64,000 nucleotides of DNA from a virus (IMGVR_UViG_3300022555_003200); one strand, 5' to 3'. Positions 1,945-26,123 are shown, numbered from the stretch's first letter. Numbers and translations are program-made. The notes: generated by a model not told the origin, from the sequence alone.

Positions 1945-4900
1945 ATGGATATCCTAAAGTTTCTACGCCAAAAGTTAGTTCCTGAACGCACCCCAGTCAC
2001 CCCGCCAGAAGTAAAGAAAGTAGCAACCTCCAAAGAAGACGCGGATATGTGGAAGGCGTATGGGATATCCAACGAAGCTCTCCGCCAGGTCATCTCAGAC
2101 CAAAACCTCATCATCTACGAACGCAGCTGCCTTCGTGGGGACACTAGAATTTCCCTCCTAGACGGAACTACTCCAACAATCAAAGAGATGGCTGAGAACA
2201 ACCAAGACTATGTTGGGAAGTACGTTCTTTCAGTTAATCCAACCACGCTTGAAATCGAGCCAGATAAGATATTAGCCGCAACAAAAACTCGCCTAAATGC
2301 AGAGATGATTCGCGTTCATCTAGACAATGAGAATCACATTGACTGCACACCAGACCATAAGTTTATGCTTAGGAATGGGACCTTTAAGGAAGCAAAGGAC
2401 TTGGCTCAAGGGGAAAGTTTGATGCCTTTGTACCTAAAGAAACCAGCAAAAGTTTTAAAAGATTATTTAATGGTTTACAAGCCGAAGGGTGGGTGGACAT
2501 ACGTTCATTGGCTAGTTGATAAGTTTTTCAACGGCAAACGCCCTAAGGGAGTGATAGTGCACCACAAGGGAGACGATCGGTGCAAATATGATAAGGTAAA
2601 CAATGACCCATCTTGTCTGGAAAGGATGTCAAAGTCCGACCACAACAAGATACATTTTAACGAAGTAAGTCACAAGGAGCATTTACAGAAACTTCATAGG
2701 AAGATGGTCAAGCCCAGAGAAACCAGAGAATGTTTGGGCGGATGCGGTCTTACAAAGACAGTTATTGTTACAAGCGACTGGAGGGTGTGCAGAGACTGTG
2801 CTAACAAACTAAACGCACAGAAGCCATTTTGGCTGCAAAAACGTAAAGATGCACAACAGGCTTTATGGAACAGTCCAGAATACAGGGAACAGCAAACAAA
2901 GGCTATTTGGAATATCAAAAGATATCGTAGACCCCTCCTGACTAAAACGTGTGTTGTGTGCGGATGTGAATTTACGACCAAAGTGGGGAATCGCCAGTCG
3001 TGCAGTAAGCGCGATTGTGTAATAGAGCTTATCAGACGAAAAACTACTGGGGTTAAGAAAACCAAGTCGCTCAAAAACCACAAAGTTTTATTTGTTGAGA
3101 CGCTTACTGTTCGTGAAGATGTTTACGATATTTCAACAGAACGTAACCACAATTTTCCAACGGTTGCCGGAGTATTTGTTCACAACTCGGTTTACCAGGT
3201 AGTCGATCGCTCACTTAACCACGCCCTCATGTGCTTCACAGGTGACACCAAGGTCGCCCTGCTTGACGGCAGGGATGTGTCAATGGAGCAGTTGGCTAAA
3301 GAGTATGAACAGGGTAAAGTAAACCATGTTTATTCGATAGACCTAGACGGTAAGAAGATCGTTCGTAGCCCGATTAAACGAGCTTGGAAGACTGGGACTA
3401 AGGAGATCTTGAAGGTTGTCTTGGACAACGGCGAAGAGATCCGCTGCACACTAGACCATAGGTTCATGCTTAGGGACGGATCATACAAGGAAGCCCAGCA
3501 GCTTAAGCCAGATGACTCCCTTATGCCTCTATACCGGTATGTGGATAAGGAGTACCGCAAGGGGTATTGGCGGCTCTACGACCCATTTAACGCACGCCAG
3601 GCAGAGCCAAAGCACTATAGCGTCCAGTACACATACTTCAACAAGAACCGCGGTACAGGTAATCATGTCCACCACTCTTACACAAATTTCAAAGACTCCG
3701 CATTAAATAAACTAGATGACTCTCCGGAGAACCACTCCATCCTCTCCAAAAAAGACCACAGTGCAGTTCACACGAAGCCACAGGAAGCCAGGTTCGCCCA
3801 GGCTATTCGTACCATTCAGAACCATTATGGGGTTAGCCGCGAAGAAGCCATTAGGATCTATGAGTTCAATCACAAGAAAGTTCCTTGCCCTGTATGCACG
3901 GATCTGATGGATCCACGTCGTAAGACGTGTTCGTATGAGTGTAGGAACTCCGCAATGAGAGGCAGGGCTCCTCACAATAAGGGTAAGATCGGGCAGACGG
4001 CTTGGAACAAAGGGCTGACAAAAGAAGACATTAGAGTTGCTAAGTATGCGACTAAGCCGCGTTGGAACGTCGGGCTCACAAAAGAGACAGACGAGCGCGT
4101 CATGCATATGGCGGAGTCTAAGGTTGGTGGGACACCGTGGAATAAGGGGATTAGGAATCACAAGGTAAAAGAAGTTGTAAGGCTAAACGCTGTGGCAGAC
4201 GTCTATGATCTAACAATAGAGCCATTCCACAATTTTGCTTTGTCCGCCGGAGTGTTTGTTCACAATAGCGCGGCGTGTGTCGCATTTGCAGACACAGCTT
4301 GTCAGCGCTCCCCACTACACGGTTCAACTGTGTGGGTAACTTCTGACAATAAAGAATATCGCTACCAGCTGGAGAAGATGCTGGACGTGATCAACATCGA
4401 GGAAGTCATATACGATTGGGCCTGGACTACAGCAGCTTTCGGTGATCTCTTTGTAGAGTGTTTTGGAGAACCAGGCGTAGGACTCATATGCGTCAACGAT
4501 GATAACCATCCAATCAACGTCAGCAGGGTAGATCACAACGGAAGATTAGTGGGGTTTTTCCAGACTCCACTCGGCTACGCAACTACAGACACCCGTAAGT
4601 TACTAGCACCGTGGGACCATGTACACTTCAGACTCTTAGGAGCCAAGAAGCGGAGGCCACTATACGCCGATCAACAATATTGTATAGCTGGAAATACACG
4701 AATAAATCTTCTAGATAATACAACCCCAACCATAAAAGAAATCACAGAGAACCTCGCTTTCTATAAAGGAAAATCTGTACTAACAATCAATCCGCAGACC
4801 CTTAATCTTGAGGTTGGGCAAATTGTAGATGCAAAGAAAACCCGCCTAGATGCTCAACTGGTACGTGTTCATCTTGATAATGAACAACATATTGACTGCA

Positions 4901-20739: not shown

Positions 20740-21120
20740 ATGAGTTTTGAGAAGGACATATCCGCTATCAAGAAGCTTATGGAATCCGAGCCTGTGTTTA
20801 AGGCCGCCGGGCCTGAGGATCTCAATAAGCGTAAGGCAGCCGAGGATAGAGCTCGTGAGGCTCGGGAAGCTGCACGTAAGGCTGAAGGTATAGTAGATTT
20901 TTGTCCACACTGCAAGGCTGACTTACGGGACCAGAATATCGGAGCGTACGCTACCGGAAAAGAGTACTTCACGGAAGGGCTTTTTTGGGACAGTGAGCTT
21001 GAGAGCTGGAACTACGGTGAAAGAGATACTAACGACTCTTCTGTTGACGGCTACCTCTGCGGAAAATGTAACAAGGTATTGCACATAGGAACTGACTTTG
21101 ATCCTGAGAGAACACTATGA
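20740..21120 (+). CDS. leader + FKAA-tagged Zn-ribbon protein
   Basis: LMESEPVFKAAG; CPHC...CGKC. Confidence 0.8.
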   Translation: MSFEKDISAIKKLMESEPVFKAAGPEDLNKRKAAEDRAREAREAARKAEGIVDFCPHCKADLRDQNIGAYATGKEYFTEGLFWDSELESWNYGERDTNDSSVDGYLCGKCNKVLHIGTDFDPERTL

Positions 21121-21449
21121 GCTTAGAGCAAGATGTCGCATACATTCAGAGAATGATGAAGCTCTATGAAGCTGAGCCTGTGTTTAAGGCCGCCGGACGA
21201 GAGGATGTAAATCAGAGAAGGAACGCTGCTGCAAGAGCACGTCAAGCTGAGCTTGCTGACAAGCTGGCAGATCCAGTGTGGTCTTTCTGCTATGACCATT
21301 ACTATGCAGATCCAGACAGCGACGGTGTGCGTGAGAAGTGGTTGCCTTTCGATAGCTGGGACGATGATGACATCGAGGACCAAGTTGACACCGACGCTGA
21401 GGCTCTTAGACGGTTTATGGCGGGAACATATAGGAAGGCTGCACAATGA
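21117..21449 (+). CDS. leader + FKAA-tagged protein
   Basis: LYEAEPVFKAAG. Confidence 0.8.
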   Translation: MSLEQDVAYIQRMMKLYEAEPVFKAAGREDVNQRRNAAARARQAELADKLADPVWSFCYDHYYADPDSDGVREKWLPFDSWDDDDIEDQVDTDAEALRRFMAGTYRKAAQ

Positions 21450-22057
21450 GCTTCGAAAAAGATATCACAGAAATCAAGAAGATGGTTGAGGCGGAAGAGC
21501 CGGTGTTCAAGGCTGCTAGCCCTGAGCAGGTTGCCAAGAGGGTGGATGATATAGTGGCACAGCAGGCGCAGCAGCTGTACGCAAAGGCCGAGGAGGCTCG
21601 GCCTGGTATAATCGCGGAGCTTAGAGCAAAGCTTGGTAATAGTGAGGCACTCGTTCAGACGGCGATCGCTTACGCGGACACACAGCACATTGATACACTT
21701 CTTGGTATTGAGCCGGAAGAGATTCGAATGGCTGATCTTACGTCGTGGAATGACAGTCTTGGCGCCAAGATCCGGGATCTTGATTGGCCTGGAGTATGGA
21801 CGGATAAAAACACGTTCTTGAAGCAGGCTGAGATGGTTGGTGGATACAACGTATTTGATGAAGATATCGCTAAGGGTCTCGTTCAGGATTTTGGAGACAG
21901 GCAGTATCGATTGGCCCGTGAAGGCTCTGTAGCAGTTTACATCAGGCCAGTTAAGAAAGTAGAGATGGGGTTGTTGAAAGGTTCAGAAGGACCCAATGCA
22001 TTCGGGGAAGATGAGCACGATTTAGATGGAAATGAATTAAGACTTTGGTGGGACTAG
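21446..22057 (+). CDS. leader + FKAA-tagged protein, C-terminus paralogous to that of ORF 32700
   Basis: MVEAEEPVFKAAS; WPGVWTD...YRLARE. Confidence 0.8.
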   Translation: MSFEKDITEIKKMVEAEEPVFKAASPEQVAKRVDDIVAQQAQQLYAKAEEARPGIIAELRAKLGNSEALVQTAIAYADTQHIDTLLGIEPEEIRMADLTSWNDSLGAKIRDLDWPGVWTDKNTFLKQAEMVGGYNVFDEDIAKGLVQDFGDRQYRLAREGSVAVYIRPVKKVEMGLLKGSEGPNAFGEDEHDLDGNELRLWWD

Positions 22058-22065
22058 GGGGCTGT

Positions 22066-22716
22066 ATGGCTGGTGGTGTTTACAAGCGAACTAAGGCACA
22101 CGGTAGGGCAATTTCAAAAGCTAGGCAGGGGTCTATCAATTGGAGTCGTGGGCTTACAAAGGAGATTGATACCCGTGTTGCTAACAACGCTAAGTCAATA
22201 CAAAAATCAATAAAGGAGCTTTGGAAAGACCCTGCTTACGTAGCTAAGAGGAACGCAGGTTACGCTAAGTTTAGGAAAGAGCGCGGAGCAGAGGTTGCGG
22301 CTAAGATTTCCAGAACGTTGACAGGGAGAAAGACAGGACCACAGTCTAAAGAGCTAATTGAGAAGCGTATGCGTGGAGTATTAAAAGCTCTTTGCAAGCA
22401 TCCGAATAAGTTTGAAGCAAACTCAATGAACTACGTAAATACTATATACGGCGGTAACGTTAGATTTACAGGGGACGGTTCGTTGATCATAAACGGCAAA
22501 TCAGCAGACGCCGTGTTGGACGGAACAAACATAGTGTTTCTTTTTAACGGTGTTTACTGGCACTTAGAGCGATTTGGGTATGCAGTAACTGAAGAAGCTA
22601 AGCGTATTGTGGAAGCCAAAGAGTCAACGCCGTTTCTGCAAGCCGGATACAAAGTTATTTTCGTCTGGGAAGACGAGTTGAATAGGGTAATTAAAAAGTG
22701 TAACAAAAAAGTGTAG
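22066..22716 (+). CDS. free-standing PD-(D/E)xK (Vsr/DUF559-like) homing endonuclease with NUMOD-like N-terminus
   Basis: WSRGLTKEIDTRV repeat; KSADAV...FNGVYWH...GYKVIFVWEDE. Confidence 0.7.
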   Translation: MAGGVYKRTKAHGRAISKARQGSINWSRGLTKEIDTRVANNAKSIQKSIKELWKDPAYVAKRNAGYAKFRKERGAEVAAKISRTLTGRKTGPQSKELIEKRMRGVLKALCKHPNKFEANSMNYVNTIYGGNVRFTGDGSLIINGKSADAVLDGTNIVFLFNGVYWHLERFGYAVTEEAKRIVEAKESTPFLQAGYKVIFVWEDELNRVIKKCNKKV

Positions 22717-22774
22717 AAACTGGAATAGTTCCAAGTTTCACAGTGAGCAACACAATCAAAAGGAGAAACAAATA

Positions 22775-23641
22775 ATGGCAAGAGGCAAGGTTAAGTGGTC
22801 CGAATAGAGCCACGTACTTCGCTATATGCTGGAATAACTTCAAAAGATAGGAGTCCTAATATGGAAAAATCTTCTATACACGGAGTCAATCAGCAGGCAA
22901 AGGCAGTAGACTTGGCTTGGTTAGCGGGTCTGGTAGATGGGGAAGGTACTATAGGCTTGTATAAGTATATGTGTGGGAAGAGCTTAGTATGTAAGCCCAG
23001 ATTCCAGATTTGCACAACCAGTCCAAGATTGGTTAAACGTGTATTAGAAATCTTAGAACCGCTTGGTTTTAAGTTATACGTCAACCAGGCCGAACAACGG
23101 CCACAGTGGAAAGAGCGTTATACAATCGTAGCTTGTAAGCACGAAACGTGCGAACAAATTATACTAATGCTCTATGACTATCTTGTGGAAAAGAAACCAC
23201 AAGCAGATTTGTTGCTTGGATATCTTAGGTCAAGACATGGTAAGCTTGGCAATGGAAAAGGGTATTCAGAAAAAGAATTAGCAACAGTCGAAGCTCTAAA
23301 AGAAACTAACTTTAGAGGTGTCAATTTTCCACGACTGCCAGAGTCCTCAGAGACTACACGCGAAGAGCTGTTATGAGCAGCCAAGATATAGTCCGATCTG
23401 CATAGCGATATGCAGCTAACAAAATGTCAGCGGTCCCAAGGGTTACGGATTCATCACGGGTAACGACGGTAAAGATGTTTTTTGCCACTTTAGCAGCATT
23501 TTGCAAGATAAGGGATACAAGACACTTGACGAAGGTCAAGAGGTTGAGTTTGACATCGTTGCTGGAGAGAAGGGGGACCAGTCCGCGAACGTTCGTAAGA
23601 TTGTTCCGCTTAATGAAGTAAAAGCTGTGGATAGTAAGTAA
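22775..23641 (+). CDS. csp: cold-shock protein (CspA family, 79 aa), join(22775..22799,23427..23641)
   Basis: Spliced: [53 protein letters not shown]..., RNP1 KGYGFI, RNP2 VFCHF, SD AAGGAG; exons total 240 nt in frame. Confidence 0.9.
22800..23426 (+). mobile_element. group I intron (627 nt) in csp
   Basis: Exon ends in U, intron ends in G; IGS GCCAC 22809-13; P ATGCTGGAA 22826; Q AATCAGCAGG 22888; R TCAGAGACTA 23347; S AAGATATAGTCC 23383; P9 with GCGA tetraloop. Confidence 0.92.
22861..23376 (+). CDS. intron-encoded LAGLIDADG homing endonuclease
   Basis: [15 protein letters not shown]; PRFQICTTS; YLVEKKPQA. Confidence 0.88.
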   Translation: MEKSSIHGVNQQAKAVDLAWLAGLVDGEGTIGLYKYMCGKSLVCKPRFQICTTSPRLVKRVLEILEPLGFKLYVNQAEQRPQWKERYTIVACKHETCEQIILMLYDYLVEKKPQADLLLGYLRSRHGKLGNGKGYSEKELATVEALKETNFRGVNFPRLPESSETTREELL

Positions 23642-23648
23642 CGTATTA

Positions 23649-23720
23649 CGGGGCGATAAGAGCTGATCACTCTTCTGGTGCCTAGTTCATCAGATAGCCC
23701 CGCTTTACCTAACTAGGAGG
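23649..23720 (+). promoter_or_regulatory. candidate structured RNA (three-way junction with loop-RBS pairing)
   Basis: Three stems; loop CCTAGTT complementary to AACTAGG overlapping SD AGGAGG. Confidence 0.45.
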
Positions 23721-23725
23721 ATGGT

Positions 23726-24280
23726 ATGAATACAAAAGTTTGTACTGTTTGCGGCACTGAAAAGAAAACGTCTTATTTTTACCCAAAGAAAACTGGAAAG
23801 TTTAAAGTGTCGGCAGCATGCAAGGAATGTGATCTGTTAGCGCACAAAAAGTATTACAAGGATAACCGTGACATGGTGCTGAGCAAGGTCAGGGAGCGCA
23901 GCAGAGGCAGCAAAAAGGAAAAGGCAGTTTACGACCGTAATTACAATGTCGTAAATAACACAAGGCTTTTGCGACAGAAGGAAAACACAAGGCTTAAAAG
24001 AAGTTACAAAATAACGCTTGAGCAATATTTTGACATGTTATTTAAGCAAAGCTTTCGATGCCTTGGGTGTGGTAAGCACCAGTCTGATATTGAGTGGGCG
24101 CTATGCATAGACCATGATCATAAGTGCTGTTCCGGTGAAAGATCATGTGGTAAGTGCATACGAGGACTGTTATGCATTCATTGTAACCACGCAATAGGAA
24201 GTGCGTACGATGACGTTGGAACGCTAAAAAACTTGGTTTTATATCTAGAGTCGTTCGAACAACAAGGTAAACCAGCTTAG
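23726..24280 (+). CDS. endonuclease VII-family His-Cys nuclease (probable free-standing homing endonuclease)
   Basis: YKITLEQY...CLGC...LCIDHDH...IRGLLCIHCNHAIG. Confidence 0.85.
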   Translation: MNTKVCTVCGTEKKTSYFYPKKTGKFKVSAACKECDLLAHKKYYKDNRDMVLSKVRERSRGSKKEKAVYDRNYNVVNNTRLLRQKENTRLKRSYKITLEQYFDMLFKQSFRCLGCGKHQSDIEWALCIDHDHKCCSGERSCGKCIRGLLCIHCNHAIGSAYDDVGTLKNLVLYLESFEQQGKPA

Positions 24281-24352
24281 GAAGTGGCCAAAGAAGTGGC
24301 CAAAATGGCCGTTTTTAGGGCCTAGGAGCAACTTTCTAGGTAATAAGGAGTA

Positions 24353-24670
24353 ATGAGGTCTATGGAAACAATAACCTGTCCCAAGTGCAACAAAACGCTG
24401 GTTCCTATGAATGACAAGCATTATGCCTACTGTCCCAAGAAGGACTTGGTCGTAAAGTTTGGGGAGTCTTACAACAGGAAGTGCAAGATCCAACCGGACC
24501 CAAACTCTGGTTGCGGCACGCTGTTTGAGGTCCCTCTTAGTGAGCGCGACGAACTGGCCGAACTTGAACGCAGGTATAGGCCCAGAACACATAAGGCTGA
24601 GCACAGTGGAAGTCAGAAATCCCACGTTCGCGCACATTCCGATGGCAAGTCCATCAAACAGGAACGTTAA
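24353..24670 (+). CDS. Cys-rich hypothetical protein
   Basis: CPKC...C...C...C; SD AAGGAG. Confidence 0.6.
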   Translation: MRSMETITCPKCNKTLVPMNDKHYAYCPKKDLVVKFGESYNRKCKIQPDPNSGCGTLFEVPLSERDELAELERRYRPRTHKAEHSGSQKSHVRAHSDGKSIKQER

Positions 24671-24718: not shown

Positions 24719-25081
24719 ATGGAAGAAAAGTTAAAGACTTTCGGAGAATTACTAAAAGAGACGCTCGGTGAGCGCACGGCGGAATTGCCGGCTGTGGCAG
24801 AGGAATCGTCAGCTACACTTACTGACTCGGAGCGAGGCGCGATTCTCGAGAAACTTTCGAAAACGAAGCGCGAAACTACCGCCCAACCCCCTTCGGCGGC
24901 AGACAGTCACGGGGAAGACCTTTCGACTGCCTCCTTCGGGTCCTTACTTGAACAAACTGTAAAGCTTCAGGAGGAGATGAGGAACGAGGATCACTCGAAA
25001 GATGACGAGATTCGGGAGAAGGTCATTAAGAGCTCGAAGATGGAGCTGGCTGAAGAGATGATCAAGAGGTTTATGAGATAA
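24719..25081 (+). CDS. acidic hypothetical protein with T4 CTS-like N-terminus
   Basis: KTFGELLKE; 120 aa. Confidence 0.6.
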   Translation: MEEKLKTFGELLKETLGERTAELPAVAEESSATLTDSERGAILEKLSKTKRETTAQPPSAADSHGEDLSTASFGSLLEQTVKLQEEMRNEDHSKDDEIREKVIKSSKMELAEEMIKRFMR

Positions 25082-25341
25082 TGAGCTTTGAGACGGATAT
25101 CACTCAGATCAAGAAGATGGTCGAGGCTGATGAGAAGCCAGTGTTCAGGGCTGCTAGTCAGGAAGAGATCGCCAACCGTCCGGATCCTACTAAAGAGATC
25201 AAGACAAAGCTCACGATTTACATGCCTTTGTACAAGGCTGACGGAACGAAGACGACAAAGGATGAAGCGTACAACACGATCATGGAGCTTGTGATCAACG
25301 CTGGTCTAGAGTGTCAGATCTATGAGCAGGAGATCGAATGA
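25081..25341 (+). CDS. leader + FRAA-tagged small protein
   Basis: MSFETDITQIKKMVEADEKPVFRAAS. Confidence 0.8.
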   Translation: MSFETDITQIKKMVEADEKPVFRAASQEEIANRPDPTKEIKTKLTIYMPLYKADGTKTTKDEAYNTIMELVINAGLECQIYEQEIE

Positions 25342-26123
25342 GCTTAGAACGTGATATCACGGCCATCAAGACTCTTCTAGAGGCCACACCTGTTTTCAAA
25401 GCAGCTGGCCCGGAAGATATGGATAGGCGTGCTGGCGTGACTAGAGCCGCCGAAGATAAAGCTCGCCAAGAGCGCATTGCCATAGCTGGCCCACAGCTTA
25501 GAAAACTCATGGAGCTAGCAAGACTAGCAAGAGCCGCGGATGACGAATACATCAGAGCTAGCGAGAACGATTTTATAGGGAACTACGGTAAGCAGAACGA
25601 CGAGCAACATCCGATCAAGGTGTCCTTCAGCATAAAGGTTTACAACTGGCGCATGCCGGAAGGCGTTGAGGACAAGCTCCGCGATGCCGGGTATCTCGAT
25701 TCAGCATACGAGACAACGAACGAGGACATGGCAGGTGCACTGACAGACTTTGTTGAAGATCTCCAAGCTAAGTATAAGTTCATAAATGGCTGGAGCCAGG
25801 AAGGACGGTCAGGGGGGTGGCTAGTTCTCGACATAGATGATGTTGACAACTCCTACGATGCGTCAAGGTTGACCGGGGACTTTGAGAGCATGGAGTACGC
25901 GTTAGATGAGACAGAGGGGTGGTTGCCGCAGGATTTTAAGTACGCCGAGCAGACTTTTATAGACTACAGGAAGGCGCTAGCTACAAGGCTTCACTGCTTG
26001 ACTGCTATTGAAGCATCAATTGAAAAAGGGAAGAGAGATTTAGAGAAGTGGTTCTCATCAACGGACTACTGGGATTCATACTTTGAAAGAAACGAGATAG
26101 CAGACAAAAGGAGTGAGGTCTAA
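25338..26123 (+). CDS. leader + FKAA-tagged protein
   Basis: LLEATPVFKAAG; GRSGGWL cargo motif. Confidence 0.8.
   Translation: MSLERDITAIKTLLEATPVFKAAGPEDMDRRAGVTRAAEDKARQERIAIAGPQLRKLMELARLARAADDEYIRASENDFIGNYGKQNDEQHPIKVSFSIKVYNWRMPEGVEDKLRDAGYLDSAYETTNEDMAGALTDFVEDLQAKYKFINGWSQEGRSGGWLVLDIDDVDNSYDASRLTGDFESMEYALDETEGWLPQDFKYAEQTFIDYRKALATRLHCLTAIEASIEKGKRDLEKWFSSTDYWDSYFERNEIADKRSEV

Follow-up and report, generated by a model that had tools for sequence, protein, structure and literature searches.

The region between positions 22775 and 23641 of a 64,000-nt stretch of viral DNA (IMGVR_UViG_3300022555_003200; hereafter the window) carries a gene for a cold-shock protein (csp) that is split by an insert of 627 nt. 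All features described here for the window are located on its plus strand. The gene is preceded by the Shine-Dalgarno sequence AAGGAG (22760–22765), positioned 9 nt upstream of the ATG, and an AAGGAG box is also present 5' of csp in two syntenic contigs, L382 (intron-less) and L384. Exon 1 (22775–22799) comprises just 25 nt, encodes M-A-R-G-K-V-K-W together with the first base of a Phe codon, and ends in U; exon 2 (23427–23641) supplies bases two and three of this Phe codon and continues to the stop codon TAA, encoding both RNP1 (KGYGFI) and RNP2 (VFCHF). Joining of the exons generates an ORF of 240 nt, the 79-aa product of which matches the Pfam cold-shock domain CSD (PF00313) over residues 3–66 (84.9 bits, E 3.5e-24, cut-off 27). 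The exon coordinates and the 79-aa Csp that had been proposed by an earlier sequence-only reading of the window are thus correct, as is its statement that the gene escapes plain ORF calling; the unspliced frame from the ATG at 22775 reads M-A-R-G-K-V-K-W and then terminates at an in-frame TAG (22805–22807) two codons after the Trp. The insertion point, which separates the first base of the Phe codon from the other two, falls in the conserved K-W-F / K-G-Y-G-F stretch, which represents the most conserved codons of the cold-shock domain.

Uninterrupted Csp orthologues (P0006–P0014) were identified which are 71–82% identical to, and colinear with, the spliced product, and which have in common M(A)RGKVKWFS.(P/Q)KGYGF at the N-terminus and, at the other end, the tail ...VRKIV.LN... 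that is specific to this clade. P0014, from this set, is encoded on L382, a contig of 215 kb showing synteny with the window (its neighbouring sequences match window positions 20740–21120, 21446–22057, 24371–24610, 24722–25081 and 25338–26096) and that therefore presents an empty csp site. The search for intron-less csp alleles was thus successful, and the assignment of csp as the host gene is supported by the Pfam match and by these orthologues in syntenic phages. Around the insertion point, 14 of 22 bases are identical between L382 and the window, and unrelated intron-less csp genes share 15–16 of the 22 bases of the presumed target. Additionally, in the csp gene of a syntenic 216-kb contig (L384), a different, ORF-less intron of 229 nt (62.3 bits against Rfam Intron_gpI) separates the Gly codon of K-G-Y-G-F from the Tyr codon, 15 nt downstream of the position used in the window, indicating that the site has been invaded repeatedly and that the intron is optional. 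Among the best 80 csp loci of IMG/VR no intron was observed at this site; of these loci, L314 contained no motif that could be recognised, and the upstream part of L318 is masked.

Homologous introns at the csp site

A search of the whole 64-kb window with the Rfam models at gathering score, which is 50 bits for Intron_gpI (RF00028), did not yield any match. A permissive Rfam search of positions 22700–23700 matched Intron_gpI twice, in both cases partially: positions 23270–23415 scored 31.7 bits (E 4.8e-6), with J6/7-P7-P3', P8, J8/7-P7' and P9 aligned, consensus bases near-perfect and J8/7-P7 exact, and positions 22827–22895 scored 13.7 bits across P4-P5. The intron of the window remains below the Rfam cut-off because about 420 nt of ORF separate the two parts of the ribozyme, to which the speed filters of the search contribute; at their default settings these filters also concealed the approximately 70-bit matches of L031 and L034 (see below), which became visible only in a narrow search.

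Four public read runs on the region yielded short contigs, none of which joins the sequences on either side of the intron and some of which, from other samples, carry a diverged intron 3' end, and in two of these (record 1 of X11 and record 11 of X5) this diverged end is fused to a different csp exon 2. These fragments led to a search with a pattern composed of the J8/7-P7 core joined to the codons for K-G-(F/Y)-G-F-I, whereby csp genes split at the identical T|T(C/T) position came to light on four metagenome contigs. The corresponding introns are located at L031:386-590 (minus strand), L034:8733-8931 (minus strand), L040:572-780 (plus strand) and L049:487-688 (minus strand), are 199–209 nt in length, lack an ORF, and follow the sequence ...AA(G/A)TGGT inside the Phe codon. 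All four exceed the Rfam cut-off of 50 bits, with Intron_gpI scores of 74.3, 69.8 (L034), 70.3 and 66.3 bits. Removal of the intron restores W-F-x-x-x-K-G-Y-G-F with equal spacing in all five intron-containing csp genes. The pattern was unmatched in IMG/VR.

A covariance model constructed exclusively from the four ORF-less csp introns (R1) was then compared with both strands of the 64-kb window and produced exactly two matches, corresponding to the two halves of the insert. The match at 22792–22999 (36.4 bits, E 1.2e-8) starts at the exon strand of P1, and that at 23182–23429 (73.7 bits, E 3e-19) ends 3 nt inside exon 2. Alignment indicated that the intron of the window is the same RNA as the ORF-less forms, its P6a being extended at the terminal loop by an insertion of approximately 420 nt. 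The 3' half of its ribozyme is nearest to the L034 csp intron (88% identity), and the 5' half is marginally nearest to an intron in a phage head gene on contig L381 (72% versus 68%). This half-by-half similarity would fit an exchange of endonuclease cassettes between introns, and is too weak to discriminate gain of the ORF from its loss. The core motif TCCTCAGAGACTAYACG is common to more than 240 other introns on viral and prokaryote contigs among the matches listed, and none of those examined among these matches resides in csp.

Structure of the ribozyme

The intron extends from 22800 to 23426, where it terminates with a G, as defined by the partial Rfam matches, R1 and a table of helices. 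The latter was compiled from seven introns, i.e. that of the window, its four homologues in csp and two relatives with an endonuclease gene (on L375 and L381), in which the helices were located by means of conserved anchors. The internal guide sequence (22809–22816) constitutes the 3' strand of P1, a helix which was also predicted by RNAalifold in the four homologues, and the last 8 nt of exon 1 form its 5' strand: exon bases GUGGU (22795–22799) pair with GCCAC (22809–22813), leaving a U.G pair at the splice site. This U.G pair and the terminal G are common to the window intron and all four csp homologues, and the splice geometry described in the sequence-only reading is indeed present at the positions given there.

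The 5' half of the ribozyme core (22817–22897) is delineated by the partial Rfam match, R1, the alignment and the helix table, and contains the 5' strand of P3 (22817–22822, paired with 23360–23365), P4 (22827–22832/22890–22895), P5 (22837–22841/22882–22886), P5a (22847–22853/22871–22877), P5b and the 5' strand of P6 (22896–22897, paired with 23345–23346). P6a (22902–22907/23334–23339), as identified from the MAFFT alignment and the helix table, encloses the insertion of about 420 nt with the body of the ORF, and is reduced to a hairpin of 3–5 bp in the ORF-less homologues. The 3' half of the core (23340–23426), to which the 31.7-bit Rfam and 73.7-bit R1 matches correspond, includes J6/7, P7 (5' part 23350–23356, with 23352–23356 paired to 23389–23393, also supported by the Rfam alignment), P8 (23367–23370/23378–23381), J8/7, P9 with a GCGA loop (23398–23404/23409–23415) and the 3' tail. 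The pairings P3, P4, P6a, P7 and P9 with its GNRA loop had all been listed previously, and each was located in the sequence at its reported place. P2 and P7.1/P7.2 are absent and a single hairpin (P8) lies between P3' and J8/7, so that the intron does not possess the classical IA2 architecture of the T-even phage introns. Furthermore, P10 was found upon inspection to be weak in the window intron, at about 2 bp, as compared to 5–6 bp in L034 and L049.

Across the seven introns, P3, P4, P5/5a/5b, P6/6a, P7, P8 and P9 are paired throughout, and in P3, P5a, P6a, P8 and P9 the sequence varies with pairing being retained. P3 is paired in seven of seven introns with five different sequences (e.g. CUUCGC/GCGAAG, UUCCAC/GUGGAA and CGGUAC/GUGCCG). 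The P8 and P9 hairpins are always present even though nearly every sequence differs, and the P9 loops are of the GNRA type. P6a reads GGCAGU/ACUGCC in the window, CCAAUC/GAUUGG in L375 and CAGUCG/CGACUG in L381, whereas in the ORF-less introns it is a short hairpin of either CUG/CAG or CUAGA/UCUAG; P7 changes from GACUA/UAGUC to GGCCA/UGGUC in L381, involving replacement of a U-A by a C-G pair. RNAalifold analysis of the four homologues returned P1, P3, P4, P5, P5a, P6a, P8 and P9 with 52 pairs, 16 of which have changed on both sides, the evidence for covariation being derived from four to seven sequences. As judged from sequence comparison, the 627-nt insert is a group I intron with P1, P3–P9 and the P3/P7 pseudoknot. 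The earlier identification of a group I intron is thereby substantiated by the R1 matches to both halves, the four same-site homologues at or above the Rfam cut-off, and covariation.

The intron-borne ORF

The intron contains an ORF of 171 codons (22861–23376) whose predicted product is a single-motif LAGLIDADG endonuclease of the I-CreI/I-MsoI type, as indicated by profile comparison, AlphaFold2 (AF2) modelling and Foldseek. Its AGGAG Shine-Dalgarno sequence (22849–22853) is situated in the 5' strand of P5a according to the fold of the P5 segment, its ATG (22861) occupies the loop and stem of P5b, the body of the ORF fills the P6a loop, and the stop codon TGA (23374–23376) lies in the P8 loop. 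The first 48 nt or so of the ORF are also part of the ribozyme core (P5', P4', P6 and the 5' strand of P6a), as are approximately its last 43 nt (the 3' strand of P6a, P6', J6/7, P7, P3' and the 5' strand of P8). Two protein segments that are conserved among the three closest homologues are encoded by such core elements, namely N-Q-Q-A by J5/4-P4'-P6 and P-R-L-x-E-S-S-E by P6a 3'-P6'-J6/7-P7. Given the position of these conserved ends within the core, and of the stop codon in the P8 loop, about 90 of the 516 nt serve both RNA and protein. The ribosome-binding sites of the endonuclease genes in the L375 and L381 introns were likewise found by inspection in P5a/P5b helices.

Pfam scores of the ORF product are below their respective cut-offs (LAGLIDADG_3, 18.8 bits with a cut-off of 22.5; LAGLIDADG_1, 18.5 with 23.1; Hom_end, 17.1 with 21.1), and the product matches PHROG 5046, labelled 'HNH endonuclease', with E 1.9e-11. 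A profile built from five homologues, which were obtained in a search of 5.8 billion proteins, matches I-MsoI (1m5x, natural chain; E 2.9e-9), I-CvuI (E 1e-8) and I-CreI (E ~1e-6), and its alignment to the solved members of the family covers residues 6–145, almost the entire protein, and brings the catalytic Asp residues into register. In the motif LAGLVDGEG, residues D26, G27, E28 and G29 are invariant in the five homologues, and the Asp of the LAGLIDADG helix and a K-P-Q-A segment that aligns with I-MsoI and I-CreI are retained in homologues at 27–72% identity. The AF2 model (pLDDT 74) displays the fold alpha-beta-beta-alpha-beta-beta-alpha (H15-28, E29-38, E41-52, H55-68, E73-77, E86-91 and H94-107), is confident over residues 10–125, and has residues 1–9 and 151–171 predicted as disordered. 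Foldseek superposed this model on I-CreI chains with E 2e-8 to 1e-7, TM scores of 0.71–0.75 (normalised to target length) and an rmsd of 2.3–2.6. The claim of a LAGLIDADG endonuclease is therefore borne out by the profile matches to I-MsoI, I-CvuI and I-CreI and by the superposition on I-CreI. As a single-motif enzyme, the protein should, from knowledge of the family, act as a homodimer. Some sites of homodimeric LAGLIDADG enzymes are pseudo-palindromic; in the presumed 22-bp target, the best pseudo-palindrome comprises 5 of 11 positions, which is not above expectation.

For the closest homologues of the endonuclease, P0002 (73% identity) and P0003 (67%), the coding sequence likewise occupies a P6a loop, in each case that of a related group I intron, and the host ORFs surrounding these introns match PHROG families of major head proteins (L375, E 4.5e-7; L381, E 1.2e-7). 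The exons that flank these head-gene introns differ, and, apart from GGT|T, inspection of those flanking the L375 intron revealed little resemblance to the csp site. An identical ORF product is encoded on 14 contigs, the longest being 202,599 bp, and DNA of the window is present in freshwater and lake metagenomes from several studies. Among GenBank phages, no near match to window positions 22000–24400 and no tblastn match to the endonuclease at E 1e-5 were detected, and the ORF-less intron produced a single short match confined to the core. Similarly, no relative of the endonuclease was detected in IMG/VR.

Interpretation and comparison with known systems

The element is, with high probability, an ordinary selfish and splicing-competent mobile group I intron that carries its own LAGLIDADG gene and resides in the csp gene of an uncultured freshwater phage of about 200 kb. 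The intron would excise itself from the csp transcript with the aid of guanosine, which would allow the phage to continue to produce Csp. The endonuclease, presumably as a homodimer, would cleave the intron-less csp gene of relatives that infect the same cell, close to the insertion site; repair of the break would then copy the intron into csp (homing). Formation of the ribozyme structure and passage of ribosomes through the endonuclease ORF may hinder each other and thus maintain endonuclease expression at a low level, as suggested by the location of the ribosome-binding site of the ORF inside P5a and of its ATG at P5b; interference of this kind is known in other phage introns. The suggestion that the conservation of csp sustains homing is reasonable in view of the insertion into the most conserved codons, the occurrence of intron-less alleles and the second intron 15 nt away.

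Three other explanations were considered. The insert could be a decaying element that no longer splices, in which case csp would be a pseudogene in this phage. The failure of the window intron, taken alone, to reach the Rfam cut-off and its weak P10 would be compatible with such decay; however, the core helices and the consensus bases of J6/7, J8/7 and P7 are all intact, the 3' half is 88% identical to that of an ORF-less homologue scoring 69.8 bits, both exons, the csp ribosome-binding site and RNP1/RNP2 are preserved, and the endonuclease ORF is unbroken, with an identical product on the 14 contigs. Non-splicing decay is consequently considered highly improbable. Greater weight, within what is still an unlikely scenario, is given to the possibility that the ORF no longer specifies a homing endonuclease, being either an inactive remnant or mainly a maturase that assists folding of the intron. 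Endonuclease genes of introns often decay after fixation, certain LAGLIDADG proteins such as I-AniI are maturases, four relatives at the same site already lack the ORF, the Pfam scores are under their cut-offs, and no intron-less copy of the same strain was present among the short contigs of the four read runs. Against this, the ORF retains its full length, homologues conserve both K-P-Q-A and the Asp of the LAGLIDADG helix, the fold is confidently predicted for residues 10–125, and the ORF-less homologues indicate that the ribozyme does not need an internally encoded protein.

It is also conceivable that the phage has recruited the intron for regulation, with Csp promoting the folding and splicing of its own pre-mRNA or with splicing being dependent on translation or temperature, so that the output of Csp would be switched by cold or by feedback from the chaperone. 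Proteins of the CspA family are RNA chaperones that melt RNA structure (PMC3017892), and ribosomes that initiate at the csp start codon would encounter P1 at once because exon 1 is just 25 nt long; together, these features could render splicing responsive to Csp, translation or temperature. The repeated invasion of csp is a further point in favour. Under such an arrangement the amount of an RNA chaperone in the phage infection would adjust itself and respond to cold, and the repeated invasion of one 20-nt stretch of csp by unrelated introns would on that account be tolerated or even favoured. Nevertheless, the syntenic relative L382 does well with an intron-less csp and the csp gene of L384 has been invaded differently, the most conserved codons are the usual choice for insertion by homing endonucleases, and a homing endonuclease combined with ORF-less relatives and relatives in other genes is the signature of a selfish element. 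Moreover, the sequence contains no feature specific to regulation, and we regard a regulatory role as improbable.

Interpreted as a mobile intron, the family displays, at the level of sequence, the usual life cycle of such elements and forms a compact natural series for the study of the homing cycle and of endonuclease retargeting, consisting of empty sites (one of them syntenic), four ORF-less introns, an ORF-carrying copy with an intact I-CreI-type gene, and relatives in head genes with enzymes of 67–73% identity. In addition, csp would join the phage genes that carry self-splicing introns, splicing being predicted here, and since the split gene escapes ORF callers entirely, csp is under-represented in the annotation of such phages. 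The roughly 90 nt that serve as ribozyme core and also encode the endonuclease termini, together with the ribosome-binding site buried in P5a, represent a clear case of mutual adaptation of intron and endonuclease.

Phage group I introns with homing endonucleases encoded in their loops constitute a textbook class, of which the T4 td intron with I-TevI is an example. Both the td and the csp intron interrupt a conserved phage gene and bear the endonuclease ORF in the P6a loop. In the self-splicing td intron, structured RNA around the ribosome-binding site keeps translation of I-TevI in check, and the intron homes into intron-less alleles. I-TevI is a GIY-YIG enzyme and the td intron belongs to subgroup IA2, with P2 and P7.1/P7.2, whereas the csp intron encodes a LAGLIDADG protein, lacks P2 and possesses one hairpin (P8) between P3' and J8/7. 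I-CreI, I-MsoI and I-CvuI, which are homodimers from group I introns of green-algal chloroplast 23S rRNA genes, represent the best profile and fold matches of the csp enzyme, and resemble it in size, in the single LAGLIDADG helix with its catalytic Asp, and in the location of the gene, which lies within a peripheral loop of its group I intron. They differ in that identity is limited to 15–21%, the csp enzyme belongs to a protein-coding gene of a phage, its presumed target is without an evident pseudo-palindrome, and ribozyme core sequence encodes its termini, for which disorder is predicted.

The group I intron in the capsid gene of mycobacteriophage LittleE encodes an I-CreI-related LAGLIDADG protein (gp14), and its splicing was demonstrated by RT-PCR (PMC3706429). 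It shares with the csp intron the phage context, a single-motif I-CreI-like gene of approximately 170 aa and an optional presence among related phages, and its capsid host gene is matched by the major-head-protein genes in which the closest relatives of the csp endonuclease occur; in contrast, the LittleE ORF is antisense to its intron, whereas that of the csp intron is on the intron strand, in csp as host gene. LAGLIDADG genes are uncommon in phage introns, though documented: a survey of the Bastillevirinae reported loop-encoded endonucleases, including one LAGLIDADG protein in a DNA-polymerase intron (PMC11878797). The class to which the td intron belongs is summarised in the same two papers (PMC3706429, PMC11878797). 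In full-text literature searches, for which most subscription journals were outside coverage, no paper on an intron in a csp gene was found, in agreement with the sequence-only reading, whose author knew of none; the word 'cold' occurs twice in PMC11878797, in both cases in a DNA-purification method. In the Bastillevirinae, introns occur in genes for DNA polymerase and for other replication or structural proteins (PMC11878797), as opposed to csp in the present case. As far as could be found, the novelty of the present intron thus resides in csp as the host gene, for which no published report was found, its LAGLIDADG cargo, and its link to introns of head genes, with the general picture of mobile introns being unchanged.

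Nuclease genes on either side of csp

The window's intron-bearing cold-shock protein gene (csp) has nuclease genes on either side, as it is preceded by a nuclease-like open reading frame and followed by an endonuclease gene. The downstream gene (23726-24280, plus strand), which lies directly 3' of csp, encodes a 184-aa protein of the Endonuclease VII/HNH type (Pfam PF02945, E 6.9e-17). In neither of two syntenic contigs, L382 and L384, does a counterpart lie within 3 kb of csp, and the gene is probably a free-standing homing endonuclease inserted beside the intron-bearing csp. The upstream reading frame (22045-22716, plus strand) is located directly 5' of csp and specifies 223 aa with repeated NUMOD3-like motifs and a C-terminal segment (F-N-G-V-Y-W-H ... 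W-E-D-E) that resembles, by eye, a Vsr/PD-(D/E)xK nuclease. Pfam returned no match for this product, while PHROG 3339 ('homing endonuclease') matched it weakly (E 8.3e-5). Additionally, L382 and L384 each carry a homologue (42-46% identity) two genes downstream of csp, indicating that this free-standing nuclease-like gene is differently placed in the window's phage.

Other introns within csp

The csp gene of L384, a 216-kb syntenic relative, is interrupted by an intron differing from that of the window, namely an ORF-less group I intron of 229 nt (L384:2775-3003, plus strand; Rfam, 62.3 bits). Within K-G-Y-G-F it separates the Gly codon from the Tyr codon that follows, 15 nt away from the insertion site in the window, and gene callers report for this csp only a truncated 67-aa product whose start is the terminal ATG of the intron.

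ORF-less csp introns are also carried by shorter metagenome contigs. In the 2-kb contig L040, the intron-containing csp is followed, after approximately 660 nt, by a tmRNA gene (L040:1443-1821, plus strand; Rfam RF00023, 65.2 bits), which suggests that the contig derives from a large phage or else from the genome of a bacterial host. The 9.9-kb contig L034 encodes two collagen-repeat proteins (L034:2752-5663; Pfam Collagen, E 4.8e-61 and 2.3e-12) together with one methyltransferase and zinc-ribbon proteins, a gene content that would fit a phage or other virus. The introns of L034 and a further such contig, L031, score 70-74 bits on Intron_gpI. Searches of the whole loci missed both, whether the cut-off was the gathering threshold or E 0.001, and they emerged only from searches of stretches of about 280 nt. 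Compact, AT-rich introns can be hidden by default filters.

At window positions 23340-23476, contigs from two sequencing runs, X11 and X5 (one a wastewater run labelled RNA-Seq, the material of which may be RNA or DNA, the other a lake run), join a diverged copy of the 3' end of the window's intron to other csp exon-2 sequences reading ...V-F-V-H-F-S-A-I-Q-Q, and thereby point to what would be additional csp-intron alleles in other habitats.

Related introns in head genes

Group I introns related to that of the window interrupt the major-head-protein genes of two further uncultured phages, of which one is GC-rich (L375:about 2907-3543 and L381:about 260-900; inspection by eye gave no exact 5' splice site for the L381 intron). 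Their LAGLIDADG reading frames are 67-73% identical to that of the window and occupy the same P6a loop.
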